Source of the DNA: Squalus acanthias
Taxonomy: Eukaryota
Length of the DNA stretch: 64,000 nucleotides
Direction: 5' to 3'
NCBI GenBank assembly: GCA_030390025.1
Contig: JASTWF010000327.1
Coordinates: forward strand, 310,001-374,000
A model generated the notes under the pieces. That model was not told the origin of the DNA. It did not search any database and saw only the letters and a list, made by a program, of their open reading frames with translations. Numbering within the stretch: position 1 is the stretch's first letter; each line of letters begins with the position of its first letter. Below, in pieces: positions 24,376 through 60,099 of this stretch. Position numbers and translations under genes: made by a program.

Positions 24376-24459
24376 TCCTGTCCGTCCTGGAGTTTGGCGC
24401 GGGGCCCCTTTGCTGAGCGAATCGGGAGAAACCGGGAAGCGGCGGGCGGATAATGTTGA

Positions 24460-33531: not shown

Positions 33532-34225
33532 CGAACACATTAAACCTTCATAGAATAATTACCAGTCATTTTTAGACTGGAAACCTAACCCTGCCGTTTC
33601 ATTTTCAGTCAGGAACAGATCGCAGTTTGACACCAATCTCTGATTTGACAGCACGTTTCCAGCATTCACCGTTGTTCTTCCTGACTCTAAACACAGTTGT
33701 AAAGGAGCCTTCTGCTCCGTGCCTAGGAGCTCTGAACCATGGAAGAGAGCGGCTGGGACACATTTCTTACAGGCCTCAAGATTAACCCGCACAGAGACTT
33801 TCCTTTCAGTGAAGAGAGACGAGAAAGACCAAAGTGCCGTTTGCCCCTCTCAGTGTGGCCCTGAAGGACTGTGTCCAGGCTGAAGTTCTGTTCCCGCCGT
33901 ACGATCCTCCCCCAGATTGTCCTTTCTGAGCTCCAGCCAGGTGATGCTAAACACTCAGGTGGGAAAGACAAAAATCTACAACAATGTGTTTAACACAAAG
34001 CTGATTCATTTGACATATGTCCAGAATATTAAACTCCAACCCAGCTACAGGCGTTATTAACATCAGCAGAAACAAACCCCAACTGTCAGAATGAACATGA
34101 TTCAGTCCGAGATGTGATTAATAGCAGCAAAAACATCAGAATCCAACCTCTGCAGTCACTTGTGAACTCGCTGGTGTGTCAGCAGATCCTTTTTGCTTTT
34201 AAATCTCTTCTCACAGTAAGAACAG

Positions 34226-35110
34226 TTAAAAGGCACCCTTATCAGTGTGAACTCGCTGGTGTTTCAGCAGGCTGGATGACTGAGTGAATCCCTTCCCACA
34301 CTCAGTGCAGGTTAACAGTCTCTCCCCAGTGTGAGTGCGCTGGTGTACAGTGAGGTGAGATTGTTGCCTGAACCCAGTCCCGCAGTGAGAGCACCTGAAC
34401 GGTCTCTCGTCAGTGTGAACACGTTGATGGCACATCAGTTCCCCGGAACTTTTATAGCACTTCCCGCAGTCCGGGCATTTAAAAGGTCTCTCCTCAGTGT
34501 GAACTCGCTGGTGTGTCAACAGGTGGGAGGACTGAGTGAATCCCTTCCCACACTCAGAGCAGTTGAACGGCCTCTCCCCAGTGTGAACTCGCTGGTGTGT
34601 CAGCAGATTGAATGAACACGTGAATCCCTTTCCACACTCAGAGCAGTTGAACGGTCTCTCCCCGGTGTGAAGTCGCTGGTGTGTCAGCAGATTGGATGAC
34701 TGAGTGAATCCCTTCCCACACTCAGAGCAGTTGAATGGCCTCTCCCCAGTGTGAACTCGCTGGTGTCTCAGCAGGGTGGATGAACACGTGAATCCCTTCC
34801 CACACTCCGAGCAGATAAACAGCCTCTCCCCACTGTGAACTCGCTGGTGTGTCAGCAGGTTGGATGAACACTTGAATCCCTTCCCACACTCGGAGCAGGT
34901 GAACGGTCTCTCCCCAGTGTGAACTCGCTGGTGTCTCAGCAGGTGGGATGAACGAGTGAATCCCTTCCCACACTCGGAGCAGGTGAACGGCCTCTCCCCA
35001 GTGTGACTGCGCTTGTGTCTCGACAGGCCAGAGGATTGGCTGAAGCCTCGTCCACACACAGAACACGTGTACGGTTTCTCCCCGCTCTGAACGGTGCTTT
35101 CTGCTTCCAT
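34226..35110 (-). CDS. C2H2 zinc-finger protein, 10 fingers (an 11th finger, ending at 34156, lost by a +1 frameshift)
   Basis: [14 protein letters not shown] start; the frame is also open back to the acceptor at ~35205. Confidence 0.85.
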
Positions 35111-35509
35111 GTTCAAAGGTCCTGATGAATCGAGTGACTCTGTCAGATCTTGAAGTGATGTTTGGTTTGAGTTTCCCGTCTGAAAATCCTCCCCTTCGAA
35201 CACCCTGTAAAATGAATTTGAAACAGGAAAAAGGGAGGGTGAGAGAGAACCCACAAAAACACAAAGGCAGGTTGTGAAATTGAGCTGAATGAATCTGGGA
35301 ATTTGTGGGGCCGGCACTAGAAAAAAGTGACCATGAAAGCGGCCGGATTGTCGTAAAAACCCAACTGGTTCACTAATGTCCTTCAGGGAAGGGAACCAGC
35401 CACCCGGTCTGGGCCTACACAAGACTCTGGGCTCTATGGGAGGAGAGAGAGCGAGGTGGGAGGGGGAGGGGTGAAGGAGTGACTTTATACATCTGCAACT
35501 CGACTAGAA

Positions 35510-35822
35510 CTTTGACAGCACCTCCCAAACACGCGACCTCCACCACCTAGAAGGACAAGGGCAGCAGGTGCATGGGAACACCATCACCTCCCAGTTCCCC
35601 TCCAAGTCACACACTATCCTGACTTGGGCATATATTGCCGTTCCTACATCGTCGCTGGGTGAAAATCCTGGAACTCCTCACCTAACAGCATTCTGAGAGT
35701 ACCTTCACCACACGGACTGCAGAGGTTCAAGAAGAAGGCCCAGCATCACCTTCTCAACGGGCAACTGGGGACTGGCAATATATGCTGGCCTTGCTAGTGA
35801 CACCCACATCGAATGAATTTTA
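35510..35822 (+). mobile_element. LINE (CR1/L2-type) 3' tail fragment, repeated at ~48630 and ~58520
   Basis: GACAGCACCTCCCAAAC..CCACCTAGAAGGACAAGGGCAGCAG; three paralogous copies. Confidence 0.6.
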
Positions 35823-36265
35823 AAAATCTGTTTTTATAAAATGGATTGAAAGCCTCTACAGAAATACTTGTTCCTAAAACAATAATCTTTTACACTGTAT
35901 GGACAGTGTCTGTTTAGCAACTTAATCTCCCCTGGAATCCACCTCCCTTCACAGACTCACATTGGAAATTGTTGGGTCCCACTGGGCTCATAAGTACTGG
36001 GAGTTAAACCCAGCAGCTTCTCCCCCCTCTCCACTCCAGCTCAAACTGATGCAACAAGAAAGCCGGGAGGCCGGGGACCGAGTTCCACATCCACCGCCCA
36101 CCCTGATGCTAACCGGCTCTGAATTGCTCCCTCTGCTGTATAAATGCAAGTTGTTGTGTTTCTTGTCTGGGGGAAGCGCTGCACCCTGGGGTTAATGGTG
36201 CCGGGGCCCTGGCCGCACGTCCGCCGGCTCTGACTCGGGGCCTGAGACCCGCACTCGGTGTTGCT

Positions 36266-36467
36266 GAGGGATTCTAACCCTGGGACTGTACATGGGGATT
36301 CCAACCCTGGGACTGTACATGGGGATTCTAACCCTGGGACTGTACATGGGGATTCTAACCCTGGGACTGTACATGGGGATTCCAACCCTGGGACTGTACA
36401 TGGGGATTCCAACCCTGGGACTGTACATGGGGATTCCAGCCCTGGGACTGTACATGGGGATTCCAAC
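36266..36467. repeat. 27-bp minisatellite, ~7 copies
   Basis: Same unit as the 17718 array. Confidence 0.95.
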
Positions 36468-37010
36468 TGAGACTGGACAGGGGGGCCCAGCTCTGGGGCT
36501 CTTCTGTTACAATTGTGTGGGATGTTAACCGTATGCTTTGCTGTTACCAGCGCCTTCAGGAGAGATGGTGAGAAATTCGAAGTGTGGAGAGTTTGAATCA
36601 AATACCAGATGGCTTGCATCCCTGGTTGCCAAGGGAATTGGGGAAGGAGATAGCGGAAGGGCTTGCCATAATTTTCCAATCTTCCCCAGTGGCAAATGTG
36701 ACACCATTGTTCAAGAAAAGGTGTGAGGAAAATCCTAGTAACTACAGGCCGGTCAGTTTAACATCAGTGGTCGGTAAAGTTTTAGAAACAATAATCAAGG
36801 AAAAAAATTAACGGGCATTTGGAGAGATTTAAGCTCATTAAGGGGAGCCAACATGGGTTTGTAAAAGGCAGACCATGTTTGACTAATCTAATTGAATTTT
36901 TTGATGAAGTAACAGGGAGGACTGATGAAGGGAATGCAATGGATGTTGTCCACATGGATTTTCGGAAGGCGTTTGACAAAGCACCACATAGAAGGATTGT
37001 TAACAAAATT

Positions 37011-40000
37011 TCTGTGGCCGCAACCGAGATTCCAGGATGGTATGTTGCCTCCCTGGTGCAAGGGTCAAGGATGTCTCGGAGCGGCTGCAGAACATTCTGA
37101 AGAGGGAGGGTGAACAGCCAGCTGTCGTGGTGCATGTAGGTACCAACGATATAGGTAATAAGCGGGAAGAGGTCCTACAAGCAGAATTTAGGGAGCCAGG
37201 AGCTAAATTAAAAAGTAGGACCTCTAAGGTAGTAATCTCTGGATTGCTACCAGGGCCACGTGCTAATCCGAATAGAGAGAACAGGATAGTGAGATTGAAT
37301 ACGTGGCTTGAGCAGTGGTGCAGGAGGGAGGGATTCAAATTCCTGAGGCATTGGAACCAGTTCTGGGGGAAGTGGGACCTGTACAAAAGGGACGGTCTGC
37401 ACTTGGGCAGGACTGGAACCGATGTCGTCGGGGTAATATTTGCTAAAGCAGTTCGGGAGGATTTAAACTAATATGGCAGGGGAATGGGAACCTATGTAGC
37501 GAAACAGGGGGAAGTAATATGCAGTCAGAAACAAATGTTAGAAGGGTGAGAAACAATAGGGGAAGGCCGAGTAAACAAAGACAAGAAACACAAAGGGCCA
37601 TACTAAATCATAAGTCTAAAAGGACAAAGGATGTTAATAAAGCAAGCCTAAAGGCTCTGTGTCTTAATGCAAGGAGTATCCGTAATAAGGTGGATGAATT
37701 GACTGTGCAAATAGATGTTAACGGATACGATGTGATTGGGATTACAGAGACGTGGCTCCAGAACAATCAAGGCTGGGAACTGAACATCCAGGGGTATTCA
37801 ACATTCAGAAAGGATAGAATAAAAGGTAAAGGGGGTGGGGTAGCATTAACATAAGAACATAAGAAATAGGAGCAGGAGTAGGCCAATCGGCCCCTCGAGC
37901 CTGCTCCGCCATTCAATAAGATCATGGCTGATCTGATCCTAACCGCCAATCTACTATCACAGAACCATCTCCTGCATCTAACAGAATTGCACACATGAAA
38001 TAGGAGCAGAATCAGGCTACACGGTCCCTGGGCCCGCTCCACTACCCACAGGGCCATGACCGATCCGAACCTAGACTCATGTCCAAATTCCTGCCCGCTC
38101 CCCGTAACCCTTAATGCCCTTTACTTCTAGGAAACTGTCTATTTCTGTTTTAAATTTATTTAATGATGTAGCTTCTACAGCTTTTTGTGGCAGCATATTC
38201 CATGGACCTACCACCCTCTGAGTGAAGTAGTTCCTCCTCATCTCAGTTTTGAAAGAGCAGCCCCTTATTCTAAGACTATGTCCCCTAGTTCTAGTCTCAC
38301 CCGTCATCGGGAACATCCTCCCCGCATCCACCCGATCCAACCCCTTCACAATCTTATATGTTTCAATAAGATCGCCTCTCATTCTTCTGAACTCCAATGA
38401 GTAGAGTCCCAACCTCTCCTCATATGACCACCCCCTCATCCCCGGGATTAACCGAGTGAACCTTTTTTGCACTGCCTCGAGAGCAAGGATGTCTTTCCTT
38501 AAGTAAGGACACCAAAACTGCTGGTTAAAGAGGAGATTAATGCAATAGCAAGGAAGGACATCAGCTTGGAGGATATGGAATCAATATGGGTTGAGCTGCA
38601 GAACACCAAAGGGCAGAAAACGTTAGTGGGAGTTGTGTACAGACCTCCAAACAGCAGTAGTGAGGTGGGGGAGGGTATGAAACAGGAAATCAGAGGTGCG
38701 TGCAAAAAAGGCACGGCAGTTATCATGGGTGACTTTAATATGCATATAGATTGGGCTACTCAAACTGGAAGCAATACGGTGGAGGAGGATTTCCTGGAGT
38801 GTTTAAGGGATGGTTTCCTAAACCAATATGTTGAGGAACCAACTCGAGGGGAGGCCATCCTGGACTGGGTGTTGTGTAATGAGGAAGGACTAATCAGCAA
38901 TCTTGTGGTACGAGGCCCCCTGGGGAAGAGTGACCATAGTATGGTGGAGTTCTACATTAGGATGGAGAAGGAAACAGTTAAGTCAGAGACCATGGTCCAG
39001 AACTTAAATAAGGGCAACTTTGAGGGTATGAGGCGTGAATTGGCGAGGTTAAATTGGCAAGCGATATTTAAGGGGCTATCAGTGGAAGGGCAATGGCAGA
39101 CATTTAGAGATCGCATGGATGAACTACAACAATTGTACATCCCGGTCTGGCGTAAAAATAAAAAAGGGAAGGTGGCTCAACCATGGCTAACGAGGGAAAT
39201 CAGGGATAGTATTAAAACCAAGGAAGTTGCATACAAATTGGCCAGAAGTAGCAGCAAACCCGGGGACTGGGAGAACTTCAAAACTCAGCAGAGGAGGACG
39301 AAGGGTTTGATTAGGGCAGGGAAAATAAAATATGAAAGGAAGCTTGCAGAGAACATTAAAATGGACTGCAAAAGCTTCTATAAATATGTAAAAAGAAAGA
39401 GGTTAGTAAAAACAAACGTAGGTCCCCTGCAGTCGGAAACAGGGGAAGTCGTAATGGGGAACAAGGAAATGGCAGATCAATTGAACAAGTACTTTGGTTC
39501 GGTGTTTACTGTGGAGGACACACACAACCTGCCGGAAATAAAAGGGGTCAGAGGATCTGGTAAGAGGGAGGAGCTGAGGGAAATCCTTATTAGTCGGGAA
39601 AAGGTATTGGGGAAATTGATGGGACTGAAGGCTGAAAAATCCCCGGGGCCTGATGGTCTGCATCCCAGAGTACTTAAGGAGGTGGCCTTGGAAATAGTGG
39701 ATGCATTGACGATCATTTTCCAACATTCCTTAGACTCTGGATCAGTTCCGATGGAGTGGAGGGTGGCCAATGTAACCCCTCTTTTTAAAAAAGGAGGGAG
39801 GGAGAAAGCAGGGAATTATAGACCGGTCAGCCTGACATCGGTCGTGGGTAAAATGATGGAAGCAATTATTAAAGATGTCATAACAGACCATTTGGAAAGT
39901 GGCGACATGATAGGTCCAAGTCAGCATGGATTTGTGAAAGGGAAATCATGCTTGACAAATCTTCTGGAATTTTTTGAGGATGTTTCCAATAGGGTGGACA

Positions 40001-41218
40001 GGGGGGAACCAGTAGATGTGGTGTATTTGGACTTTCAGAAGGCCTTCGACAAGGTCCCACACAAGAGATTGGTGAGCAAAGTTAAAGCACATGGGATTGG
40101 GGGTAATGTGTTGACGTGGATTGAGAACTGGTTGGCACACAGGAAACAAAGAGTAGGAGTAAATGGGTACTTTTCAGAATGGCAGGCAGTGACCAGCAGG
40201 GTACCGCAGGGTTCGGTGCTGGGACCCCAGCTGTTTACATTATATATTAATGATTTGGACGAAGGGATTAAATGTGATATCTCCAAATTTGCGGATGACA
40301 CTAAATTGGGAGGCAGTGTGAACAATGAGGAGGATGCTAGGAGGCTACAGAGTGACTTGGACAGGTTGGGTGAATGGGCAAATGTATGGCAGATGAAGTA
40401 CAATGTGGATAAATGTGAGGTTATCCACTTTGGTGGTAAAAATAGAGAGGCGGACTATTACCTGAATGGTGGCAGATTAGGGAAAGGGGAGGTGCAACGA
40501 GACCTGGGCGTCATGGTACATCAGTCACTGAAGGTGGGAATACAAGTGCAGCAGGCAGTCAAGAAAGCAAACGGAATGATGGCCTTCATAGTAAGGGGAT
40601 TTGAGTACAGGAGTAGGGAGGTGATGCTGCAGTTGTACAGGGCCTTGGTGAGGCCACACCTGGAGTATTGTGCGCAGTTTTGGTCTCCTAACTTAAGGAA
40701 GGACATTCTTGCTATTGAGGGAGTGCAGCGAAGGTTCACTAGATTGATTCCTGGGATGGCCGGACTGACATATCAAGAAAGATTGGATCAACTGAACTTG
40801 TATCCTCTGGAGTTCAGAAGAATGAGGGGGGATCTTATAGAGACATTTAAAATCCTGACTGGTTTAGACAAATTAGATGCAGGCAGAATGTTCCCAATGT
40901 TAGGGAAAACTAGAACCAGGGGTCACAGTCTGAGGATTAAGGGGAAGCCATTTAAGACTGAGCTGAGGAGGAACTTCTTCACCCAGAGAGTGGTGAATCT
41001 ATGGAATTCTCTTCCACAGAAGGTTGTTGAGGCCAGTTCGCTAAATATATTCAAAAGGGAGTTAGATATAACACTCACAACTAGGGGGATCAAGGGGTAT
41101 GGCGAGAAAGCAGGAATGGGGTACTGAGGTAGCATGTTCAGCCATGAACGCATTGAATGGCGGTGCAGGCTCGAAGGACCGAATGGTCTACTCCTGTACC
41201 TATTTTCTATGTTTCTAT
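37011..41218 (+). mobile_element. Young CR1: SGNH ORF1 part (37037-37471) plus ORF2, open apart from an inner insertion
   Basis: LCLNARSI...GGGVAL, then a stop-free 853-aa ORF 38566-41127; TTTCTATG tail. Confidence 0.96.
37848..38519 (-). mobile_element. Antisense CR1 3' fragment (same family as 9509-11160)
   Basis: ORF 38077-38472; tail AACATAAGAACATAAG; interrupts GTAGCATT|GCTGGTT. Confidence 0.93.
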
Positions 41219-42335
41219 GAGGCTCATAGAATAGGTGTGTCAGTGACAGCTTGGATAAGGAATTGGCTTAAGGACAGAAAACAGCGAGTTGTGGTGAATG
41301 GCTGTTTTTCAGCCTGGAGGATGGTAGACAGTGGTGTTCCCCAAGGGTCAGTGCTGGGGTCACTGCTTTTTTTGATATATATAAATGACCTGGATATTGG
41401 AATACAGAGTAGAATTTCTAAATTTGCCGATGACACCAAACTTGGGGGTGTGGCAAACAGTGATGATGATACCAATCGACTGCAACAGGACATAGAAAGG
41501 CTAGCAGAATGGGCAGACAAGTGGCAGATGGAATTTAATACAGAGAAGTGTGAGGTGATGCATTTTGGCAGAAGGAACAGGGAGAGGCAATATACACTTA
41601 ATGGCACAGTTTTAAAGAGTGTGCAGGGACAGAGGGACCTGGGAGTTAATGTGCATAGGTCCCTGAAGGTGGCAGGATATATTGAAAGAGTGGTTAACAA
41701 AGCATATGGGATCTTGGGCTTCATAAATAGAGGTATTGAGTACAAAAGTAGAGAAGTTATGCTGAACCTTTATAAAGCGCTGGTTCGGCCACAACTGGAG
41801 TATTGCGTCCAGTTCTGGTCACCACACTTTCGGAAGGATGTGAAGGCCCTTGAGTGGGTGCAGAAGAGATTTACCAGAATGGTTCTGGGGATGGGGGATC
41901 TTAGTTACAAAGACAGGTTGGAGAAGCTGGATTTGTTTTCATTAGAGCAAAGGAGGTTGAGGGGTGATTTGATAGAGGTGTACAAGATTATGACGTGTTT
42001 GGATAGGCTAGATGGGGAAAGGCTGTTCCCACTAGTTGATGGTACAAGGACTAAGGGGCACAGATTTAAGGTTTTGGGCAAGAGATACAGGGGGTATGTG
42101 AGGAAAAACTTTTTACGCAGCGAGTGGTGAGGACCTGGAACTCGCTGCCAACGGAAGTGGTGGAAACAGAGACACTTAATGTTTTCAAGGGGAGACTGGA
42201 TAGGCACTTGAGGGAAATAAACTTGCAGGGCTACGGGGATAGCGCGGGGGAATGGGACTGACTGGATTGCTCTACAGAGAGCCGGCACGGACTCGATGGG
42301 CCGAATGGCCTCCTCTGTGCCGTCATGACTGTATA

Positions 42336-42736
42336 AAGGTGCTGACTCTGGCTGGGTTCAGTTCTACACTCACTGGTTCCCCTCCCTCTCCTCCCCTGAA
42401 GGTGCTGACTCTGGCTGGGTTCAGTTCTACACTCACTGGTTCCTCTCCCTCTCCTCCCCTGAAGGTGCTGACTCTGGCTGGGTTCAGTTCTACACTCACT
42501 GGTTCCCCTCCCTCTCCTCCCTGAAGGTGCTGACTCTGGCTGGGTTCAGTTCTACACTCACTGGTTCCTCCCCTGAAGGTGCTGACTCTGGCTGGGTTCA
42601 GTTCTACACTCACTGGTTCCCCTCCCTCTCCTCCCTGAAGGTGCTGACTCTGGCTGGGTTCAGTTCTACACTCACTGGTTCCCCTCCCTCTCCTCCCCTG
42701 AAGGTGCTGACTCTGGCTGGGTTCAGTTCACTCACT
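42336..42736. repeat. 63-bp minisatellite
   Basis: Tandem copies of the 12945 unit. Confidence 0.95.
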
Positions 42737-42744
42737 GGGACCCT

Positions 42745-43225
42745 GAAGCCCCGCCCACTCGTGGTTCCTTTTTTCCAGTTCTGACGAAAGGTCATCGACC
42801 TGAAACGTTAACTCTGTTTCTCTCTTCACAGATGCTGCCTGACCTGCTCAGCATCTCCAGCATTTTGTTTATATTCCTTTACAAAGATGGCCGCGCACGC
42901 GCAGTATCACGCAAGATGGCGACGCACAAACCCTCAGCTGTCCTTTACAAAGATGGCGGCCGTTAACCTGGGCCTGTTCCTGGGAAAAAACCTCCGAGCT
43001 GGAAACGCGGAACCTGTCGGTTCTCATTTGGGGTTTGCGGCCTGCACCAGATGTTTATGAAATCCACCCGCCGGGTGCATTACCTTCCTGCGCCCCGCTG
43101 ATTCGTAATCGGCGTAAATCCCGCTGCAGCTTTTCTTCGCTTCTCGCCCTCGCCGGCCCGGATCACAATGACACTGCGCATGCTCCAAATACAGGCGGGC
43201 GCTGCGCCTGCGCACTGGACTCCTC
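42745..43225. promoter_or_regulatory. CpG-island promoter-like region
   Basis: GCCCCGCCC, three YY1-like AAGATGGC, NRF1-like GCGCATGC and GCGCCTGCGCA, minus-strand donor AAG|GTAATG at ~43083. Confidence 0.6.
42772..42873 (+). mobile_element. Penelope-like fragment with a hammerhead-like motif
   Basis: CTGACGA-AAGGTC-ATC-GACCT-GAAAC; TTCCTTT duplicated at both ends; absent from the related promoter at ~60130. Confidence 0.7.
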
Positions 43226-43254
43226 CTGTGTGAATGGGCACATTCCACAAACAG

Positions 43255-43660
43255 AGCAGTGAATGGATTCTCCCCCTTACCAATATGTTAGGGTGGGAAT
43301 CGATGAGATGAGTGAGTGACTCTCTATCCACACTCAGCTGTTGAACAGCCTCTCCCCGGTGTGACTGTATCCATGAGTTTGCACCTCAGACGGGCAACTG
43401 AACCCGTTCCCACATTCCCCACATTTACACTGTTGATTCAGGTGGGTGCACGAGTCTCACAGACTAGACGATTTGTTAAAAGTGGATCCAGGCACAGAAC
43501 ACGTGTCCTGTTTCTTCCCGCTGTGATTGGTGCTTTTTCCTCCTATAGCCAAAGGCCGATGATATTCAGGTCCTGATAAATCCGGTGAATCTGTCAGATC
43601 TTGACGCAATGTTTGGATTCAGTTTCCATCTGCAGATCCTCCCCTTCTAATACCCTCAAA
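43255..43660 (-). pseudogene. Highly degenerate ZNF exon relic (paralog at ~52450-52840)
   Basis: VLEGEDLQM leader and decayed CSV / KCGE..HTGER pieces. Confidence 0.65.
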
Positions 43661-43875
43661 TGGTGTTTACAACAGGATAGAACTTCAGAACAGACAAATC
43701 TAGTTTCTATACAACATTCCTTCCCCCTCCTGTCCCTCCTAAGCTGTAAATTCCCCATTCTACACACTCTTCCTCCATCCTTACTGTCTAAAAACAACAT
43801 TCATTACATCATCTGGGATTTTGGGTCTCCCCTTCTCTCCAGAAGGAACTGAATCTGGCTGGGTGCATTTGGTTA

Positions 43876-46487: not shown

Positions 46488-46858
46488 AATCTGCCCGGCA
46501 ACTTTACATTCAGTGAAGAGAGACGAGAAAGACCAAAGTGCCGTTTGCCCCTCTCAGTGTGGCCCTGAAGGACTGTGTCCAGGCTGAAGTTCTGTTCCCG
46601 CCGAACGATCCTCCCCCAGATTGTCCTTTCTGAGCTCCAGCCAGGTGATGCTAAACACTCAGGTGGGAACGACAAAAATCCACAACAATGTGTTTAAAGC
46701 AAATTGATTTAATTGACATCTATCCAGAATATTAAACTCCAGCCCAGTTACAGGGGTTATTAACATCAGCAGAAACAAACCCCACCTGTCAGTGTGAACA
46801 CGATTCAGTCCGGGATGTAATTAACAGCAGCAATAACAGCAGAATCCAACCCCTGCAG

Positions 46859-48232
46859 TCACTTGTGAACTCGCTGGTGTTTCAGCAGGTCGAATGACCG
46901 AGTGAATCCCTTCCCACACACGGAGCAGGTGAACGGTCTCTCCCCGGTGTGAATTCGCTGGTGTTTCAGTCGGTCGGATGAATGAGTGAATCCCTTTCCA
47001 CACTCAGAGCAGGTGAACGGTCTCTCCCCGGTGTGAACTCGCTGGTGTGACAGCAGGTGGGATGAACACATGAATCCCTTTCCACACTCAGAGCAAGTGA
47101 ACGGCCTCTCCCCAGTGTGAGTGCGCTGGTGTACAGTGAGGTGAGATGATTGCCTGAACCCAGTCCCGCAGTGAGAGCACCTGAACGGCCTCTCCCCAGT
47201 GTGAACTCGCTGGTGTGTCAGCAGGTCGGATGACTGAGTGAATCCCTTCCCACACTCAGAGCACCTGAACGGTCTCTCGGCAGTGTGAACACGTTGATGA
47301 CACATCAGTTCCCTGGAACTTTTATAGCACTTCCCGCAGTCCGGGCATTTTAAATGTCTCTCGTCAGTGTGAACTCGCTGGTGTTTCAGAAGGTGGGATG
47401 ACTGAGTGAATCCCTTCCCACACTCGGAGCAGGTGAACGGCCTCTCCCCAGTGTGAACTCGCTGGTGTTTCAGTCGGTCGGATGAATGAGTGAATCCCTT
47501 CCCACACTCGGAGCAGGTGAACGGCCTCTCCCCAGTGTGAATTCGCTGGTGTGTCAGCAGGTGGGATGACTGAGTGAATCCCTTCCCACACTCGGAGCAG
47601 GTGAACGGCCTCTCCCCAGTGTGAACTCGCTGGTGTGTCAGCAGGTGGGATGACAGAGTGAATCCCTTCCCACACTCAGAGCAGGTGAACAGCCTCTCCC
47701 CAGAATGAACTCGCTGGTGTGTCAGCAGGGTGGATGACTGAGTGAATCCCTTCCCACACTCCGAGCAGGTGAACGGCCTCTCCCCAGAATGAACTCGCTG
47801 GTGTGTCAGCAGGCTGAATGACCGAGTGAATCCCTTTCCACACTCAGAGCAGGTGAACGGCCTCTCCCCAGTGTGAGTGCGCTGGTGTTTCAGCAGGCTA
47901 GATGAACAAGTGAATCCCTTCCCACACTCGGAGCAGGTGAACGGCCTCTCCCCAGTATGAACTCGCTGGTGTGTCAGAAGGTCGGAGGAACAAGCGAATC
48001 CCTTCCCACACTCGGAGCAGGTGAACGGTCTCTCCCCAGTGTGAACTCGCTGGTGTGTCAGCAGGTGGGATGACTGAGTGAATCCCTTCCCACACTCAGT
48101 GCAGGTGAACGGCCTCTCCCCAGTGTGAACTCGCTTGTGTCTCGACAGGCCAGAGGATCGGCTGAAGCCTCGTCCACACACAGAACACGTGTACGGTTTC
48201 TCCCCGCTCTGAACGGTGCTTTCTGCTTCCAT
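46859..48232 (-). CDS. C2H2 zinc-finger protein, 16 fingers, intact
   Basis: [14 protein letters not shown] ... HQRVHK-stop; acceptor at ~48327. Confidence 0.9.
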
Positions 48233-49393
48233 GCTCAAAGGTCTTGATGAATCGAGTGACTCTGTCAGATACTGAAGTGATGTTTGGTTTGAGTTTCCCG
48301 TCTGCAAATCCTCCCCTTCCAACACCCTGCAAAATTAATTTAAAACAGGAAAAAGGGAGGGTGAGAGAGAACCCACAAAAACACAAAGGCAGGTTGTGAA
48401 ATTGAGCTGAATGAACCTGGGAATTTGTGGGGCCGGCACTAGAAAAAAGTGACCATGAAAGCTGCCGGATTGTCGTAAAAACCCAACTGGTTCACTAATG
48501 TCCTTCAGGGAAGGGAACCCGCCACCCGGTCTGGGCCTACACAAGACTCTGGCCTCTATGGGAGGAGAGAGAGCGAGGTGGGAGGGGGAGGAGTGAAGGA
48601 GTTACTTTATACATCAGCAACTCGACTAGAACTTTGACAGCACCTCCCAAACACGCGACCTCCACCACCTAGAAGGACAAGGGCAGCAGGTGCATGGGAA
48701 CACCATCACCTCCCAGTTCCCCTCCAAGTCACACACTATCCTGACTTGGGCATATATCGCCGTTCCTACATCGTCGCTGGGTGAAAATCCTGGAACTCCT
48801 CACCTAACAGCATTCTGAGAGTACCTTCACCACACGGACTGCAGAGGTTCAAGAAGAAGGCCCAGCATCATCTTCTCAACGGGCAACTGGGGACTGGCAA
48901 TATATGCTGGCCTTGCTAGTGACACCCACATCGAATGAATTTAAAAAATATGTATATATAAAATGGATTGAAAGCCTCTACAGAAACACTTGTTCCTAAA
49001 ATGATAATCTTTCACACTGTACAGGCAGTGTCTGTTTAGCACCTTAATCTCCCCTAGAATCCACCTCTCTTCACAGTCCCACATTGGAAATTGTTGGGTC
49101 CCACTGGGCTCAGAAGTACTGGGAGTTAATGCCAGCAGCTTCTCCCCCCTCTCCACTCCAGCTCAAACTGATGCAACAAGAAAGCCCTACACAGGAGGCC
49201 AGGGACCGAGTTCCACATCCACCGCCCACCCTGATGCTAACCGGCTCTGAATTGCTCCCTCTGCTGTATAAATGCAAGTTGTTGTGTTTCTTGTCTGGGG
49301 GAGGTGCTGCACCCTGGGGTTAATGGTGCCGGGGCCCTGGCCGCACGTCCGCCGGCTCTGACTCGGGGCCTGAGACCCACACTCGGTGTTGCT

Positions 49394-49736
49394 GAGGGAT
49401 TCCAGCCCTGGGACTGTACATGGGGATTCCAACCCTGGGACTGTACATGGGGATTCTAACCCTGGGACTGTACATGGGGATTCTAACCCTGGGACTGTAC
49501 ATGGGGATTCTAACCCTGGGACTGTACATGGGGATTCCAACCCTGGGACTGTACATGGGGATTCTAACCCTGGGACTGTACATGGGGATTCTAACCCTGG
49601 GACTGTACATGGGGATTCTAACCGTGGGACTGTACATGGGGATTCTAACCCTGGGACTGTACATGGGGATTCCAACCCTGGGACTGTACATGGGGATTCT
49701 AACCCTGGGACTGTACATGGGGAATCCAACCCTGAG
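49394..49736. repeat. 27-bp minisatellite, ~12 copies
   Basis: Same unit. Confidence 0.95.
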
Positions 49737-49864
49737 ACTGGACAGGGGGGCCCAGCTCTGGGGCTCTTCTCTTACAATTGTGTTGGATGTTAACCATATG
49801 CTTTGCTTTTACCAGTGCCTTCAGGAGAGATGGTGAGAAATTCAAAGTGTGGAGAGTTTGAATC

Positions 49865-51390: not shown

Positions 51391-51393
51391 TAT

Positions 51394-51926
51394 AAAGGTG
51401 CTGACTCTGGATGGGTTCAGTTCTACACTCAGTGGTTCCCCTCCCTCTCCTCCCCTGAAGGTGCTGACTCTGGCTGGGTTCAGTTCTACACTCACTGGTT
51501 CCTCTCCCCTGAAGGTGCTGACTCTGGCTGGGCTCAGTTCCACACTCACTGGTTCCCCTCCCTCTCCTCCCCTGAAGGTGCTGACTCTGGCTGGGTTCAA
51601 TTCTACACTCACTGGTTCCCCTCCCTCTCCTCCCCTGAAGGTGCTGACTCTGGCTGGGTTCAGTTCTGCACTCACTGGTTCCCCTCCCTCTCCTCCCCTG
51701 AAGGTGCTGACTCTGGCTGAGGTCAGTTCTACACTCACTGGTTCCCCTCCCTCTCCTCCCCTGAAGGTGCTGACTCTGGCTGGGTTCAGTTCTACACTCA
51801 CTGGTTCCCCACCCTCTCCTCCCCTGAAGGTGCTGACTCTGGCTGGGTTCAGTTCTACACTCACTGGTTCCCCTCCCTCTCCTCCCCTGAAGGTGCTGAC
51901 TCTGGCTGGGTTCAGTTCACTCACTG
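51394..51926. repeat. 63-bp minisatellite
   Basis: About 8.5 copies. Confidence 0.95.
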
Positions 51927-51933
51927 GGACCCT

Positions 51934-52415
51934 GAAGCCCCGCCCACTCGTGGTTCCTTTTTTCCAGTTCTGCCGAAAGGTCATCGACCTGAAACGTTAA
52001 TTCTGTTTCTCTCTTCACAGATACTGCCTGACCTGCTGAGTATCTCCAGCATTTTGTTTTTATTCCTTTACAAAGATGGCCGCGCATGCGCAGTATCACG
52101 CAAGATGGCGACGCACAAACCCTCAGCTGTCCTTTACAAAGATGGCGGCCGTTAACCTGGGCCTTTTCCTGGGAAAAAGCCTCCGAGCTGGAAACGCGGA
52201 ACCTGTAGGTTCTCATTTAGGGCTTGCGGCCTACACCAGATGTTTATGAAATCCACCCGCCGGGTGCATTACCTTCCTGCGCCCCGCTGATTCGTAATCG
52301 GCGTAAATCGCGATACAGCTTTTCTCCGCTTCTCGCCCTCGCCGGCCCGGATCACAATGACACTGCGCGTGCTCCAAATACAGGCGGGCGCTGCGCATGC
52401 GCACTGGACTCCTCC
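51934..52415. promoter_or_regulatory. CpG-island promoter-like region, duplicate of 42745-43225
   Basis: GC box, YY1-like sites, perfect GCGCATGCGC motifs. Confidence 0.6.
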
Positions 52416-55309
52416 TGTGTGAATGGGGCACATTCCACAGACAGAGCAGTGAATGGATTCTCCCCCTTACCAATATGTTAGGGTGGGAATCGATGAGATG
52501 AGTGAGTGACTCTCTATCCACACTCAGCTGGTGAACAGCCTCTCCCCGGTGTGACTGTATCCATGAGTTTGCACCTCAGACGGGCAACTGAACCCGTCCC
52601 CACATTTACACTGTTGATTCAGGTGGGTGCACGAGTCTCACAGACCAGACGATTTGTTAAAAGTGGAGCCAGGCACAGAACACGTGTCCTGTTTCTCCCC
52701 ACTGTGATTGGTGCTTTTTCCTCCTATAGCCAAAGGCCGATGATATTCAGGTCCTGATAAATCCGGTGAATCTGTCAGATCTTGACGCAATGTTTGGATT
52801 CAGTTTCCATCTGCAGATCCTCCCCTTCTAATACCCTCAACTGGTGTTTACAACAGGATAGAACTTCAGAACAGACAAATCTAGTTTCTATACAACATTC
52901 CTTCCCCCTCATGTCCCTCCTAAGCTGTAAATTCCCCATTCTACACACTCTCCCTCCATCCTTACTGTCTAAAAACAACATTCATTACATCATGTGGGAT
53001 TTTGTGTCTCCCCTTCTCTCCAGAAGGAACTGAATCTGGCTGGATGCAATTTGTTAACCTCTACATTTTGGTAGGAAGAACGAGGAGAGGCAATATATAC
53101 TAAAGGGTACAATTCTATAGGGGGTGCCTGAACAGAGAGACCTGGGGGTATATGTGCACAAATCGTTGAAGGTGGCAGGGCAGGTTGAGAAAGCGGTTAA
53201 AAAAGCATATGGGATCCTGGGCTTCATAAATAGAGGCATAGAGTACAAAAGCAAGGAAGTTATGATGAAATTTTATAAAACACTGGTCCGACCTCTCTGG
53301 AGTTTAGAAGAATGAGAGGTGATCTCATTGAAACATACAAGATTCTGAAGGGGATTGACAGGGTAGATGCTGAGAGGTTATTTCCCCTGGCTGGAGTGTC
53401 CATAACTAGGGGGCATAGTCTCAGGATAGGGGTAGGTATTAAGACCGAGAGGAGGAAGAATTTCTTCACTCAGAGGGTTGTGAATCTTTGGAATTCTCTG
53501 CCCCAGAGGGCTGTGAATGCTGAGTCTTTGAGTATATTCAAGGCTGAGATAGATAGATTTTTGGATTCTAGGGAAATCAATTGCTTTTTGTACCAGCATG
53601 CTAACTCTCTGTGATTTGTGTTCGAGGAAACCCAAATCCCTCTGAACAACAACATTTCATAATTTCTCACCATTTAAAAAATATTCTGTTTTTCTATTCT
53701 TCCTACCAAAGTGAATAATTTCACATTTCTCCACATTATACTCCATCTGCCACCTTCTTGCCCACCTCTTAACCTGTCTATATCCCTTTGCAGACTCTTT
53801 GTGTCCTGCTGTTGGGTGGCTGCTCATTATCCTCGGTGTGATTTAATCCCCTTTCCCACTGAATACTGCGGACAGACAGGCTCACCTTGGGAACGGAATG
53901 GTCAGTGTGACATCACTTTCTAAACAAGAGCCCACAAGACAATGGGTTCTCAATAAATGTTAAAGGGATTCAACGCTCTGAAGTTACACTGTGAATAAAG
54001 GAAATAAAATGCTGTTCAATAATGGCTGAAGATAATGATTTCTCTCTGTGGAATGTGCTTGCACACATTAAGAATGATGAGCTTTGTACACACACACAGC
54101 AAACACTTTGTGAGGCTCTTTTCAGTTGTTGCTCTGAACCCGCTGAGCGCTGGTGAACCCGGTGGGCATTAGGACCCTGCGGCCGCCCATCCAGCAGTGC
54201 TGTGAGGTCACGGTTCCAGGCTCTGTCTCACCCAATCAGTGGGTCCCGCCAAAGCTCAATAGAAAATACTGCAGCAAAAACAATCCTGAACATTCACAAA
54301 CTGGGAGCAATCGGCACAGCACAACACAAGTGTGAATTAGAAAACTTTAACACACAGAGTCTGTCACTAATTAGTACAAAGTACAGGGCACTATTGCTCA
54401 CCTTCAGTCCTGTCCCTCAATCCCAGCTCATCTCTGGGGGATTGTTACAAGGTTCACCCCGTCCTTTCAACACAGATATTACCCACATAATCCCACATCA
54501 ATTAGACATTGCACACAGTTTCTGACAGTTATTAACAAAACTAGACCGATGCTTCAAACCAATAAATAAATAAATCATCCCATCTCATCCCGCTGGATAA
54601 AACCTCAGACGGTTCCTCAGTAAGGATTGCACTGGTTCCTCACTGTATATGTGTCAGGATACTGAAACCCAGCTTTCTCACAGTCCACTCCTGGAGGCCC
54701 CACTCCCTGAGCCTACAACCTTCAGCAGGGTCAGTGCTGGAGTTCCACAGCGGGAGTGATCCCAGAGTAACTGTCGGGATCGCACCCCGTGGATGTTTTG
54801 GGTCGTGTATTTTTAGTTATCCTGGTGTCTAACACGCACACATCAATAAAACAGGGAATTCCTGGAAACACGCTGCAGGTCCTTCTTTATCTGGAGATCA
54901 AATGTCTGTTGTATAATTGTACCAGCAGTTAACAGGCTCCTGTGAACTCCTCCCTCTGCTATTTTAATGCAGACTTCAACCAATTTATTTTAAACGGGTT
55001 TATTTTAAATGAGTTAACGCCAGCCTTAAAATGGTAGACTCAGGACTGTCTCACACACACATACTGAATCTTCGTGGAATAATTACCAGTCATTTTTAGA
55101 CTGGAAACTTAACCCTGCCGTTTCACTTTCAGTCAGGAACAGATCGCAGTTTGACACCAATCTCTGATTTGACAGCACGTTTCCAGCATTCACCGTTGTT
55201 CTTCCTGACTCTAAACATAGTTGTAAAGGAGCCTTCTGTTCCGTGCACAGGAGCTCTGACCAATGGAAGGGAGTGGCTGGGACACATTCCTTATCAGCCT
55301 CAAGATTAA

Positions 55310-56203
55310 AGGGATATAGGTCTGCAAAGGGATATAGATAGACTAAGTGAGTGGGCAGTAAGGTGGCAGATGGAGTATAATGTAGGGAAATGTGAGGTTA
55401 TTCACTTTGGTAGGAAGAATAGAAAAACAGAATATTTTTTAAATGGTGAGAAACTTTCAAATGTTGGTGTTCAGAGAGATTTGGGTGTCCTCGTGCAAGA
55501 AACACAGAAAGCTAGCATGCAGGTACAGCAAGCAATAAGGAAGGCAAATGGCATGTTGGCCTTGAAAGCAAGGGGGTTGGAGTACAAGAGTAAGGAAGTC
55601 TTGCTACAATTGTACAAGACCTTGTAAGACCACACCTGGAGTACTGTGCACAGTTTTGGTCTCCTTATCTAAGGAAGGATATACATGCCTTGGAGGCGGT
55701 GCAATGAAGGTTCACGAGATTGATTCCTGGGATGTGAGGGCTGTCCTATGATGAGAGATTGTGTAGAATGGGCCCATACTCTCTGGAGTTTAGAAGAATG
55801 AAAGGTGATCTCATTGAAACATACAAGATTTGAAGGGGATTTACAGGGTAGATGCTGAGAGGTTGTTTCCCCTGGCTGGAGTGTCTAGAACTAGGGGGCA
55901 TAGTCTCAGGATAAGGGGTCGGCCATTTAAGACTGAGATGAGGAGGAATTTCTTCACTCAGAGTGTTGTGAATCTTTGGAATTCTCTGCCCCAGAGGGCT
56001 GTGAATGTTCAGTCTTTGAGTATATTCAAGGCTGAGACAGATAGATTTTTGGACTCTAGGGGAATCAAGGGATATGGAGATCGGGCGGGAAAGTGGAGTT
56101 GAGGTCGATGATCAGCCATGATCTTATTGAATAGCGGAGCAGGCTCGAGGGGCCGTGTGACCTACTCCTGCTCCTAATTCTTATGATCTTTTCTTATGTT
56201 CTT
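55310..56203 (+). mobile_element. 5'-truncated degenerate CR1
   Basis: MEYNVGKCEVIHFG...; several stop codons. Confidence 0.92.
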
Positions 56204-56575
56204 AATCTGCCCGGCAACTTTACTTTCAGTGAAGAGAGACGAGAAAGACCAAAGTGCCGTTTGCCCCTCTCAGTGTGGCCCTGAAGGACTGTGTCCAGGC
56301 TGAAGTTCTGTTCCCGCCGTACGATCCTCTCCCAGATTGTCCTTTCTGAGCTCCAGCCAGGTGATGCTAAACACTCAGGTGGGAATGACAAAAATCCACA
56401 ACAATGTGTTTAAAGCAAAGCTGATTTATTTGATATATATCCAGAATATTAAACTCCAGCCCAGTTACAGGGGTTATTAACATCAGCAGAAACAAACCCC
56501 AGCTGTCAGTGTGAACACGATTCAGTTCAGGATGTGATTAACAGCAGCAATAACAGCAGAATCCAACCCCTGCAG

Positions 56576-58117
56576 TCACTTGTGAACTCGCTGGTGTTTC
56601 AGTAGGTCGGATGACTGAGTGAATCCCTTCCCACACTCAGAGCAGGTGAACGGCCTCTCCCCAGTGTGAACTCGCTGGTGTCTCAGCAGGTGGGATGACT
56701 GAGTGAATCCCTTCCCACACTCAGAGCAGGTGAACGGCCTCTCCCCAGTGTGAACTCGCTGGTGTGTCAGCAGGCTGGATGACTCAGTGAATCCCTTTCC
56801 ACACTCAGAGCAAGTGAACGGCCTCTCCCCGGTGTGAGTGCGCTGGTGTGTCAGCAGGTGGGATGACTGAGTGAATCCCTTCCCACACTCAGAGCAGGTG
56901 AACGGCCTCTCCCCAGTGTGAACTCGCTGGTGTGTCAGCAGGCTGGATGACTCAGTGAACCCCTTTCCACACTCAGAGCAAGTGAACGGCCTCTCCCCAG
57001 TGTGAGTGCGCTGGTGTACAGTGAGGTGAGATGATCTCCTGAACCCAGTTCCGCAGTGAGAGCACCCGAATGGTCTCTCGTCAGTGTGAACACGTTGATG
57101 ACACATCAGTTCCCCGGAACTTTTACAGCACTTTCCACAGTCCGGGCATTTAAAAGGTCTCTCGTCAGTGTGAACTCGCTGGTGTTTCAGAAGGTCAGAT
57201 GAACGAGGGAATCCCTTCCCACACTCAGAGCAAGTGAACGGCCTCTCCCCAGTGTGAACTTGCTGGTGTGTCAGCAGGGTGGATGACTCAGTGAATCCCT
57301 TCCCACACTCAGAGCAGGTGAACGGCCTCTCCCCAGTGTGAACTCGCTGGTGTTTCAGCAGGCCGGATGACTGAGTGAATCCCTTTCCACACTCAGAGCA
57401 GGTGAACGGCCTCTCTCCAGTGTGAACTCGCTGGTGTGTCAACAGGCCGGATGACTGAGTGAATCCCTTTCCACACTCAGAGCAAGTGAACGGCCTCTCC
57501 CTGGTGTGAGTGCGCTGGTGTTTCAGCAGGTTGGATGAACACGTGAATCCCTTTCCACACTCGGAGCAGGTGAATGGCCTCTCCCCGGTGTGAACTCGCT
57601 GGTGTGTCAGCAGGCTAGATGACCGAGCGAACCCCTTCCCACACTCGGAGCAGGTGAACGGTCTCTCCCCAGTGTGAACTCGCTGGTGTGTCAGCAGGTG
57701 GGTTGACTGAGTGAATCCCTTCCCACACTCAGAGCAGGTGAACGGCCTCTCCCCAGAGTGAACTCGCTGGTGATGCAGCAGGTGGGATGACTGAGTGAAT
57801 CCCTTCCCACACTCAGAGCAGGTGAACAGTCTCCCCTCGGTGTGAAGTCGCTGGTGCGTCAGCAGGGTGGATGAACGAGTGAATCCCTTCCCACACTCAG
57901 AGCAGGTGAACGGCCTCTCCCTGGTGTGAACTCGCCAGTGCTGCAGCAGATTGTATGACTGAGTGAATCCCTTCCCACACTCAGAGCAGGTGAATGGCCT
58001 CTTCCCGGTGTGACTGCGCTTGTGTCTCGACAGGCAATAGGATCGGCTGAAGCCTCGTCCACACACAGAACACGTGTACGGTTTCTCCCCGCTCTGAACG
58101 GTGCTTTCTGCTTCCAT
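56576..58117 (-). CDS. C2H2 zinc-finger protein, 18 fingers, intact
   Basis: [14 protein letters not shown] ... HQRVHK-stop; acceptor at ~58213; AATAAA at ~56427. Confidence 0.9.
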
Positions 58118-59269
58118 GCTCAAAGGTCCTGATGAATCGAGTGACTCTGTCAGATCTTGAAGTGATGTTTGGTTTGAGTTTCCCGTCTGCAAATCCTCCC
58201 CTTCTAATACCCTGCAAAATGAATTTGAAACAGGAAAAAGGGAGGGTGAGAGAGAACCCACAAAAACACAAAGGCAGGTCGTGAAATTGAGCTGAATGAA
58301 TCTGGGAATTTGTGGGGCCGGCACTTGAAAAAAGTGACCATGAAAGCAGCCGGATTGTCGTAAAAACCCAACTGGTTCACTAATGTCCTTCAGGGAAGGG
58401 AACCCGCCACCTGGTCTGGGCCTACACAAGACTCTGGCCTCTATGGGAGGAGAGAGAGCGAGGTGGGAGGTGGAGCAGTGAAGGAGTTACTTTATACATC
58501 TGCAACTCGACTAGAACTTTGACAGCACCTCCCAAACACGCGACCTCCACCACCTAGAAGGACAAGGGCAGCAGGTGCATGGGAACACCATCACCTCCCA
58601 GTTCCCCTCCAAGTCACACACTATCCTGACTTGGGCATATATCGCCGTTCCTACATCGTCGCTGGTGAAAATCCTGGAACTCCTCACCTAACAGCATTCT
58701 GAGAGTACCTTCACCACACGGACTGCAGAGGTTCAAGAAGAAGGCCCAGTATCACCTTCTCAACGGGCAACTGGGGACTGGCAATATATGCTGGCCTTGC
58801 TAGTGACACCCACATCGAATGAATTTAAAAAATCTGTATATATAAAATGGATTGAAAGCCTCTACAGAAATACTTGTTCCTAAAATGATAATCTTTCACA
58901 CTGTATGGACAATGTCTGTTTAGCACCTTAATCTCCCCTGCAATCCACCTCCCTTCACAGTCCCACATTGGAAATTGTTGGGTCCCACTGGGCTCAGAAG
59001 TACTGGGGGTTAAACCCAGCAGCTTCTCCCTCCTCTCCACTCCAGCTCAAACTGATGCAACAAGAAAGCCCTACACAGGAGGCCAGGGACCGACAGCCAC
59101 CGCCCACCCTGATGCTAACTGGCTCTGAATTGCTCCCTCTGCTGTATAAATGCAAGTTGTTGTGTTTCTTGTCTGGGGGAGGTGCTGCACCCTGGGGTTA
59201 ATGGTGCCGGGGCCCTGGCCGCACGTCCGCCGGCTCTGACTCGGGGCCTGAGACCCACACTCGGTGTTG

Positions 59270-59950
59270 CTGAGGGATTCCAATCCTGGGACTGTACATG
59301 GTGATTCTAACCCTGGGACTGTACATGGGGATTCTAACCCTGGGACTGTACATGGGGATTCTAACCCTGGGACTGTACATGGGGATTCCAACCCTGGGAC
59401 TGTACATGGGGATTCTAACCCTGGGACTGTACATGGGGATTCTTACCCTGGGACTGTACATGGGATTCTACCCTGGGACTGTACATGGGGATTCTAACCC
59501 TGGGTCTGTACATGGGGATTCTAACCCTGGGACTGTACATGGGGATTCCAACCCTGGACTGTACATGGGGATTCTAACCTGGGACTGTACATGGGGATTC
59601 TAACCCTGGGGTCTGTACATGGGGATTCTAACCCTGGACTGTACATGGGGATTCCAACCCTGGGACTGTACATGGGGATTCTAACCCTGGGACTGTACAT
59701 GGGGATTCAACCCCTGGGACTGTACATGGGGATTCTCAACCCTGAGACCTGTACATGGGGATTCCAACCCTGGGACTGTACATGGGATTCTAACCCTGGA
59801 CTGACCATGAGGGATCTAGGATTCTAACCCTGGGACTGTACATGGGGATTCTAACCCTGGGACTGTACATGGGGATTCTAACCCTGGGACTGTACATGGG
59901 GATTCCAACCCTGGGACTGTACATGGGGATTCCAACCCTGGGACTGTACA
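59270..59950. repeat. 27-bp minisatellite, ~25 copies, indel-rich centre
   Basis: Same unit. Confidence 0.95.
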
Positions 59951-60099
59951 AGGGGGGCCCAGCTCTGGGGCTCTTCTGTTACAATTGTGTGGAATGTTAA
60001 CCGTATGCTCTGCTTTTACCAGCGCCTTCAGGAGAGATGGTGAGAAATCCGAAGTGTGGAGCGTCTGAATCAAACAACTGAGTTAATGTAATTTCCCGG

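Follow-up and report, generated by a model that had tools for sequence, protein, structure and literature searches.

Whole-finger turnover and contact-residue diversity in a finger-only C2H2 gene family of the shark Squalus acanthias

Three tandem zinc-finger genes with similar flanks

Zinc-finger paralogs that lie in tandem within similar flanks, but differ in the number and order of their fingers, raise the question of whether the arrays are as young as the flanks make them appear. We approached this question in a window of 64,000 nucleotides of Squalus acanthias DNA (contig JASTWF010000327.1, positions 310,001 to 374,000), which holds three such genes, A, B and C. They are members of a very large shark finger-only C2H2 family, and the reading we favour, at a probability of roughly 60%, is that these paralogs gain and lose whole fingers while exchange keeps their flanks alike around older arrays.

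All three genes lie on the minus strand and encode C2H2 arrays of the Krüppel type, built from 84-bp units of 28 residues joined by TGERPF-type linkers. The open reading frame (ORF) of gene C (56576..58117) comprises an ATG, a lead of 14 codons and 18 fingers, the first array Cys lying at 58072 and the stop immediately behind the final His-Lys. Gene B (46859..48232, first Cys at 48187) has 16 fingers and gene A (34226..35110, first Cys at 35065) has 10 in frame, in agreement with the counts of an earlier note on this DNA. Gene A holds 11 units in total: a net +1 base behind finger 10 ends its frame early, so that the 11th finger and the family's common stop (34156..34224, minus strand) are out of frame, and the counterpart of this finger is in frame in the paralogs L061, L064 and L070. 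The reported difference in finger order was likewise borne out, as the best unit alignments among A, B and C hold few near-identical collinear fingers. The shared 3' flank of C (56217..56575, minus strand) carries, roughly 150 nt past the stop, a candidate poly(A) signal and has counterparts at 46501-46858 in B and 33797-34155 in A.

The flanks had been described as matching almost base for base, which proved too strong. They differ at 40/864 positions between A and B, 38/865 between A and C and 26/864 between B and C (3.0-4.6%), and a 4.2-kb LINE upstream of the A coding exon (37011..41217, plus strand, 874-codon endonuclease/RT frame) is missing from B and from the A-lineage copies L062, L063 and L066. 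Uncollapsed haplotypes are ruled out by this flank divergence, the tandem arrangement on one contig, the private LINE and the closer relatives that each gene has elsewhere; A, B and C are paralogs.

Upstream of each coding exon lies a CpG-rich stretch that may act as a promoter: 59980..60560 for C, including its candidate first exon (CpG o/e 0.80), 51930..52460 for B (0.97) and 42740..43280 for A (0.93), all on the minus strand, compared with 0.37 over the first 60 kb of the window. The stretch of C contains what we take to be YY1-like (60195), NRF1-like (60167) and ETS-like (60225 and 60278) motifs and a candidate splice donor at 60188; that of B presumably has three YY1-like and two NRF1-like motifs, and that of A sits inside a block 96.6% identical to that of B. 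A 27-bp minisatellite, unstranded, precedes the coding exon of C (59274..59955, 25 copies) and recurs at 49396-49749 (13 copies) and 36268-36467 (7 copies), ranging from about 0 to 85 copies across paralogs. A 63-bp minisatellite occupies 51395..51918, with a second one at 42336-42729, and a decayed zinc-finger exon remnant (43361..43660, minus strand) in a duplicated block has a copy near 52540-52837.

A large family with one anchored finger

A first-look search returned 1982 candidates, the best 40 at 98-100%. We analysed 83 copies holding 3 to 33 units, all of which have the ATG at the same place, and dropped six whose 3' flank was not located. The ORF reaches the common stop in 54 of the remaining 77; some of the other 23 perhaps reflect sequencing errors, and the family includes many broken copies and remnants. 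Of note, copies L001, L002 and L003 (C-like) and L080 (B-like) are 98.7-99.1% identical over long blocks, being either alleles or duplicates. Proteins of horn shark and other elasmobranchs share this lead, so that the term lineage-specific holds for sharks and rays but not for Squalus acanthias alone.

The first finger and the CPDC and CSHC fingers had been viewed as fixed anchors. This holds for the first finger, which keeps its place in 56 of 59 in-register genes, but the other two are mobile modules: the CPDC-type finger is absent in 9/59 genes and present in 2-4 copies in 8/59, and it is directly followed by CSHC in 51 of 61 cases, the two being separated in B. The counts bearing on possible positive selection in these fingers are 8 nonsynonymous changes on 6.0 sites against 8 synonymous ones on 16.3 for the first finger (6 against 7 in the 59-gene set), 5/8.0 against 11/11.7 for the CPDC finger and 8/7.3 against 15/14.7 for the CSHC finger. 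Generic fingers share 87-88% nucleotide identity. Across the family, 249 of the 740 units were kept out of the generic set, being the first or last of an array or of a non-generic type. This uniformity does not arise gene by gene, as the idea of a homogenised, PRDM9-like scaffold would have it: fourfold-site divergence is 0.228 within and 0.229 between genes, and the values become 0.209 and 0.222 when a single gene represents each lineage.

Arrays change by whole fingers and probably recombine within them

Arrays gain and lose whole units. Their length is an exact multiple of 84 bp in 59 of 77 genes (the 18 off register were left out of the in-register set), and among 31 close pairs, 18 are set apart by a total of 31 unit gains or losses at 1.35% flank divergence, a rate that is a lower bound because the pairs were picked by array similarity. 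Moreover, four of six genes checked contain internal identical tracts of 109-681 nt. These data uphold the proposal that the arrays were generated by exchange of 84-bp units, and out-of-register recombination is the likely process. Within units, linkage disequilibrium falls from an r2 of 0.23 at 3-10 nt to 0.006 beyond 55 nt and is at most 0.05 between different contact positions, such that residues at -1, +3 and +6 combine almost freely. Crossovers within units would thus reshuffle a limited and old repertoire of contact residues, chiefly Q/C/R at -1, H/S/N/T/D at +3 and T/K/R at +6.

Flanks and arrays appear to have separate histories

Between 17 lineages, fourfold divergence of the CPDC-CSHC module is 0.110 (CI 0.057-0.171), as compared to 0.046 for the 3' flank and 0.031 for the 5' flank, the latter biased low because 5' flanks were the search key; within lineages, module (0.027) and flank (0.021) are close. 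Between array lineages, the divergence of internal fingers is therefore about 2.4 times that of the 3' flank, a mismatch that rests on 22 fourfold sites. Array similarity is bimodal, Mantel tests were uninformative, and 46-53% of flank site pairs failed the four-gamete test (L028 and L029 were omitted from some flank tests), so the flanks look like recombinant mosaics. Because the fingers are more diverged and the flanks mosaic-like, near-identical flanks probably overstate the speed of array divergence, and flank identity, taken as a clock of array age, is likely to mislead. Recent transfer of arrays between lineages was not caught, since the longest identical array tract between them, one close pair aside, is 119 nt, below the flank tracts.

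Could the flanks nonetheless be a fair clock, with arrays that started from a long ancestor already endowed with several divergent modules and were remade in bursts inside about 4% divergence? This alternative, closest to the view of the earlier note, is somewhat unlikely. Finger number does differ in five of eight pairs below 0.5% flank divergence, L068 has 33 units and L072 14 at 1.7%, several genes contain two module subtypes, and the event rate could be higher than measured. However, in a crude simulation collinearity drops to 10% only after about 16 or more events per lineage, and the rate that we measured predicts about three per pair at 4% divergence. Heavy intragenic turnover should also cut within-gene distance, an effect that is scarcely apparent (10.2 vs 11.2); by eye, the modules do not fall into few tight subtypes, and the four-gamete incompatibility of the flanks speaks against a simple clock. 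We therefore retain flank exchange around older arrays, in which exchange between paralogs would keep the flanks near-identical and arrays and flanks would have separate histories.

A more far-reaching version of this reading, which we consider unlikely, envisages an effector-free, cassette-type DNA-recognition library of some thousand genes or more in sharks. Its interchangeable, conversion-homogenised flanks would act as homology arms, between which old arrays would shift, recombine inside the helix and mix -1, +3 and +6 combinatorially; the first finger or the CPDC-CSHC pair would stand in for KRAB, with retroelements being silenced or insulated.

Contact residues are more diverse than synonymous sites

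The claim that differences concentrate in the recognition helix found support. Among 35 distinct generic fingers of the window, five of the six non-degenerate sites at -1/+3/+6 show a heterozygosity of 0.46-0.67 (the sixth 0.16), compared to 0-0.50 at 11 fourfold sites. Across 273 distinct fingers, variation at these positions is about twice that of synonymous sites whereas Cys and His are conserved, with pN/pS values of 2.05 for contact codons and 0.01 for Cys/His. The site-level contact ratio is 2.1-2.2 (CI 1.4-3.4, p 0.003-0.004); we used this interval because units are shared between genes, which makes the gene-level bootstrap (1.99-2.12) too narrow. When the four most variable CpG-prone synonymous codons serve as the reference, the excess at contact codons shrinks to 1.1. 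Taken alone, A, B and C give small counts, with 8 synonymous differences over about 77 site comparisons. Of the helix positions named for a dN/dS check, -1, +3 and +6 thus carry excess amino-acid diversity, but +2 is mostly Ser and constrained (pN/pS 0.45).

Fast point change at contact sites in young copies was not seen. In recent duplicates, contact-site dN/dS is 0.61 (CI 0.36-0.99; 27 of 58 tree edges omitted), equal to other non-structural finger positions, and there is therefore no sign of a present point-mutation arms race. Structural positions, in contrast, are at 0.10 (7/5957 vs 92/7726; CI 0.04-0.21), demonstrating purifying selection on the zinc ligands and core (Cys/His/Phe/Leu). 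Of note, conversion breaks the single-tree assumption behind tree-based codon models (PMC5519329).

These values bear on whether the family reflects mostly neutral churn, with segmental duplication in a LINE-rich, recombination-prone region multiplying a few functional genes and helix diversity stemming from CpG mutation and relaxed constraint. The common -1 residues (R, C, H, Q, W) are mutual CpG neighbours when read from the codons, and the broken copies and the recent contact dN/dS below 1 fit as well. Still, we regard this explanation as very unlikely. CpG decay explains -1 but fails for +3 and +6, which vary by transversions: their purine/pyrimidine heterozygosity (0.46 and 0.49) exceeds that of fourfold sites (at most 0.27), so CpG decay is not the sole cause. 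A pN/pS above 1 lies beyond what relaxed constraint can give, changes at structural residues are removed even from young copies, and array dS (0.0119) agrees with the rate in the flanks (0.0135), so fourfold sites behave as roughly neutral. For the favoured reading, we infer that long-term diversifying selection would protect the contact set from homogenisation.

No effector domain in the visible exon

Pfam gave zinc-finger-type models alone in the A, B and C ORFs, and a KRAB-SSXRD-PR/SET arrangement ahead of the arrays was not found by Pfam or in the upstream frames read by eye. Genome-wide, one KRAB match occurred among 70 scored candidates, at a locus on another contig (G000:C30) that is PRDM9-like as its translation reads. 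The description of the genes as KRAB-less and free of a visible effector domain is in line with these results.

A short, unrecognised FiNZ-like or KRAB-like 5' exon, or a 3' tail, might still be spliced on, although we think this highly improbable. FiNZ and KRAB-like domains of fish are reported to give no KRAB Pfam match (PMC10547256, PMC11603059). A putative splice acceptor, together with the presumed untranslated 5' portion of C's coding exon, spans 58118..58211 (minus strand), with counterparts starting at 48326 in B and 35204 in A. In all three genes the frame stays open through the 31 codons ahead of the ATG, and one horn-shark gene model (P0027) takes this segment as coding. It is nevertheless likely non-coding, as its frame has stops in L053 and L060, whose arrays of 13-14 fingers are intact, and its N/S ratio is 0.78 compared with 0.44 for the lead. 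In addition, reading by eye revealed no ATG in C from the ETS-like motif to the candidate donor. A GT sits at the stop codon across the family and could serve a 3' tail, but the candidate poly(A) signal stands at the same place behind the stop in 65/77 copies. Finally, no KRAB, SCAN or BTB accessions were attached to the six horn-shark proteins among the 120 longer relatives listed.

Because the visible exon encodes no effector domain, we propose occupancy or a finger-recruited partner as the putative mode of action; sequence-specific binding of repeats or retroelements, at slightly less than even odds, may be the function.

Comparison with known zinc-finger systems

The general pattern of array turnover is already known, and the function of the shark genes is putative. 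For mouse KRAB-ZNFs, arrays are reported to "drift and shift" by finger duplication, deletion and mutation (PMC5363842, PMC11952569). Their young clusters are similarly described as groups of neighbouring paralogs whose flanks are alike, with duplicated blocks and arrays that differ in their fingers, the array being the least conserved segment. The shark genes, in contrast, lack a KRAB exon and have a far more uniform finger scaffold. Cartilaginous fish are reported to be without KRAB gene families (PMC8455134), and eight published table rows for cartilaginous fish list between 315 and 3586 ZNF ORFs (Wells 2023, PMC10547256), in a paper whose main text makes no mention of sharks or cartilaginous fishes. 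That work describes the cyprinid FiNZ-ZNFs as a KRAB-less, lineage-restricted expansion with variable base-contacting residues, as in the shark family; FiNZ genes carry an N-terminal domain on an exon, and knock-down experiments support their role in repressing transposable elements (TEs). It also reports that only 11 of 236 ZNF motif predictions agreed with experiment (PMC10547256).

The PRDM9 minisatellite, as described by Baker et al. (2017, PMC5519329), likewise consists of 84-bp coding units that change in number, with an anchored, divergent first finger and diversity at the DNA-binding positions. The share of diversity at -1/2/3/6 is 0.38 in B, 0.43 in C and 0.34 as the median of 51 genes, whereas human PRDM9 reaches 0.69 and mouse PRDM9 0.91, so that the concentration seen at -1/+3/+6 falls toward the bottom of the range for PRDM9. 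A, B and C differ in lacking KRAB, SSXRD and SET and in belonging to a multigene family with no gene-specific homogenisation. Finger-only diversification, and possible repeat control without an effector, matter for understanding how TE silencing arose in vertebrates. In quantitative terms, arrays turn over through changes of entire fingers and recombination inside them, not through rapid point mutation, and flank identity probably gives arrays the wrong age, two points that would apply to KRAB-ZNF clusters as well.

Organization of the locus and its gene family

The window sits in a 3.71-Gb genome and contains nested LINE fragments, minisatellites and about eight zinc-finger (ZNF) arrays on both strands. 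Three finger-only C2H2 genes on the minus strand, A (34226..35110), B (46859..48232) and C (56576..58117), carry 10, 16 and 18 in-frame fingers, respectively. In A, an eleventh finger is present but out of frame after a net +1 base; it is in frame in the A relatives L061, L064 and L070. The flanks differ at 40 of 864 sites between A and B, 38 of 865 between A and C, and 26 of 864 between B and C. Given this divergence and a 4.2-kb LINE private to A, the three genes are paralogs. Between A and B, the duplication extends over a longer block. On contig C29 of the same genome, a 13-finger A relative adjoins a C relative with no intervening B, and on contig C1934 a near-identical B adjoins a 13-finger A relative.

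Several further features accompany the arrays. The LINE at 37011-41217 is young. Its endonuclease/RT frame is open over 874 codons, no target-site duplication can be seen, and a copy on C29 (L045, L038) is 98.8-99.6% identical across 2.2 kb. At 14570-16398, the 3' fragment of a LINE breaks up a ZNF array; it is joined in frame to the finger ORF, and two further fingers follow the insertion. Inverted repeats at 13559-13895 and 24457-24879 (93% over 69 bp and 99% over 142 bp) sit in CpG-rich stretches separating head-to-head ZNF gene pairs. Members of a second ZNF subfamily (23431-23369, 25840-25902; L047, L056) have the same stop codon in the first finger, the open array beginning further down. 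A 63-bp minisatellite (42336-42729, 51395-51918, 12939-13360) carries a splice-donor-like GTGAGT in every unit on the gene's strand. Upstream of the coding exon, a segment ~570 bp long (58654-59227) is missing in many paralogs and provides a presence/absence marker within the subfamily. A CpG-rich satellite-like block (61170-64000; internal repeats with periods of ~81 and 203 bp) lies directly upstream of the candidate C promoter and also adjoins C relatives on other contigs.

In their lead and first finger, the genes most resemble proteins of sharks and rays (Heterodontus, Mustelus, Pristiophorus, Hemitrygon), which points to an elasmobranch genome. Querying the genome with a 351-bp flank gave 1982 first-look candidates, a figure not equal to copy number, of which the best 40 scored 98-100%. 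Our sample of 100 stretches, chiefly top matches of flank-based searches, yielded 83 copies, and the 3' flank was located in 77. Among these 77, arrays of 3 to 33 units were found, 59 keeping the exact 84-bp register, 54 having an ORF that reaches the shared stop and 65 a poly(A) signal 3' of it. The in-register arrays fall into 26 lineages, with B, C and the relatives of A in three separate ones. L068 has an intact 33-unit ORF with an internal perfect duplication of 681 nt.

Gene anatomy and search for an effector

Each ORF consists of an ATG (kept in 83/83 copies), a 14-codon lead, the fingers and a stop directly after the last His-Lys. In agreement with the earlier note, no effector domain is visible: a Pfam scan of the ORFs returned zinc-finger-type models and no other domain, and a genome KRAB search gave one match among 70 scored candidates, outside these genes. 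This match (L100:3087-3270, contig C30) was read as a PRDM9-like locus; the exons after it resemble the SSXRD and PR/SET parts of PRDM9. KRAB, SCAN and BTB accessions were absent from six horn-shark proteins among the 120 longer relatives listed. The 31 codons from the putative acceptor to the ATG are open in frame in the window genes but contain stops in L053 and L060, both of which have intact arrays, and their N/S is 0.78. Candidate promoters rich in CpG lie upstream of each of A, B and C. The genes are putatively spliced and expressed.

Helix diversity and present constraint

Across 273 distinct generic fingers, pN/pS was 2.27 at helix position -1, 2.10 at +3, 1.75 at +6, 0.45 at +2 and 0.01 at Cys/His. 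The proposed concentration of variation in the recognition helix thus holds for the contact positions -1/+3/+6, but not for +2. At site level the contact excess was 2.1-2.2 (CI 1.4-3.4), falling to 1.1 when the most variable CpG-prone synonymous codons serve as reference. The -1 residue set involves mostly CpG-neighbour codons; at +3 and +6, by contrast, the variation involves transversions (0.46 and 0.49 vs ≤0.27 at fourfold sites). For recent change we used 31 close collinear pairs out of 58 tree edges; some of these pairs may be alleles. Their flanks diverge by 1.35%, and array dS is 1.19%. Here, contact dN/dS was 0.61 (21/2897 vs 92/7726; CI 0.36-0.99), a rate shared with the other non-structural finger positions, and structural-position dN/dS was 0.10. 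These values do not support fast diversification of young copies by point changes at contact sites. Together with the high pN/pS across fingers, they indicate that the fingers are maintained as functional and that the helix repertoire is diverse yet old, fast point mutation not being its present source.

Whole units, in contrast, turn over rapidly. They differ in 18 of the 31 close pairs (31 events), and identical tracts of up to 681 nt occur inside single genes, the pattern predicted by unequal exchange of 84-bp units, which supports the mechanism originally put forward. Inside the unit, linkage weakens as sites lie further apart (r2 from 0.23 down to 0.006), and contact positions are nearly unlinked to one another (r2 ≤0.05), with 90 distinct contact triplets vs 114 after shuffling and 35 of 45 common contact combinations seen vs 38. 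Recurrent mutation could contribute to this near-free mixing.

Histories of flanks and arrays

Array similarity is bimodal: where flanks diverge by 1-2% its median is 0.78, and where they diverge by 2-3% it is 0.06. According to a crude simulation, each lineage must undergo some 16 events or more before collinearity is lost, far exceeding the measured unit-event rate, itself a lower bound. Between 17 lineages, the internal CPDC-CSHC finger module diverges by 0.110 at 22 fourfold sites, compared to 0.046 in the 3' flank (p 0.014). The 5' flank gives 0.031, a figure biased by its use as search key. Within lineages, divergence is 0.027 for the module and 0.021 for the flank. Moreover, 46-53% of flank site pairs are incompatible by the four-gamete criterion. 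The divergence gap and this incompatibility suggest that flanks are likely mosaics, which would have been exchanged among paralogs and would be younger than the arrays they enclose. Counting against such mosaicism, no long array tract common to different lineages was found and Mantel tests were flat; an ancestor already carrying several module subtypes may be the alternative. A likely mismatch of flank and array histories, and helix diversity that is old while unit turnover is fast, are the new aspects here.

Comparison with known ZNF systems

The finger-only repertoire is real and functional-looking. By analogy with the correlation between ZNFs and retroelements across animals, reported in PMC10547256, we tentatively propose as most likely, at slightly below even odds, that A/B/C-type proteins bind repeats or retroelements sequence-specifically; lacking an effector, they would work through occupancy or a finger-borne partner. 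Shark ZNF expansion has already been counted in that paper. Our literature search, covering few subscription papers and part of the supplements, found no account of how the shark finger-only family is built or has evolved. Array drift and shift between close paralogs are known for mouse KRAB-ZNFs (PMC5363842, PMC11952569). The likeness to PRDM9 drawn in the earlier note does not extend to homogenisation: whereas PRDM9 units are homogenised per gene, those of the shark finger-only genes are not made uniform gene by gene.
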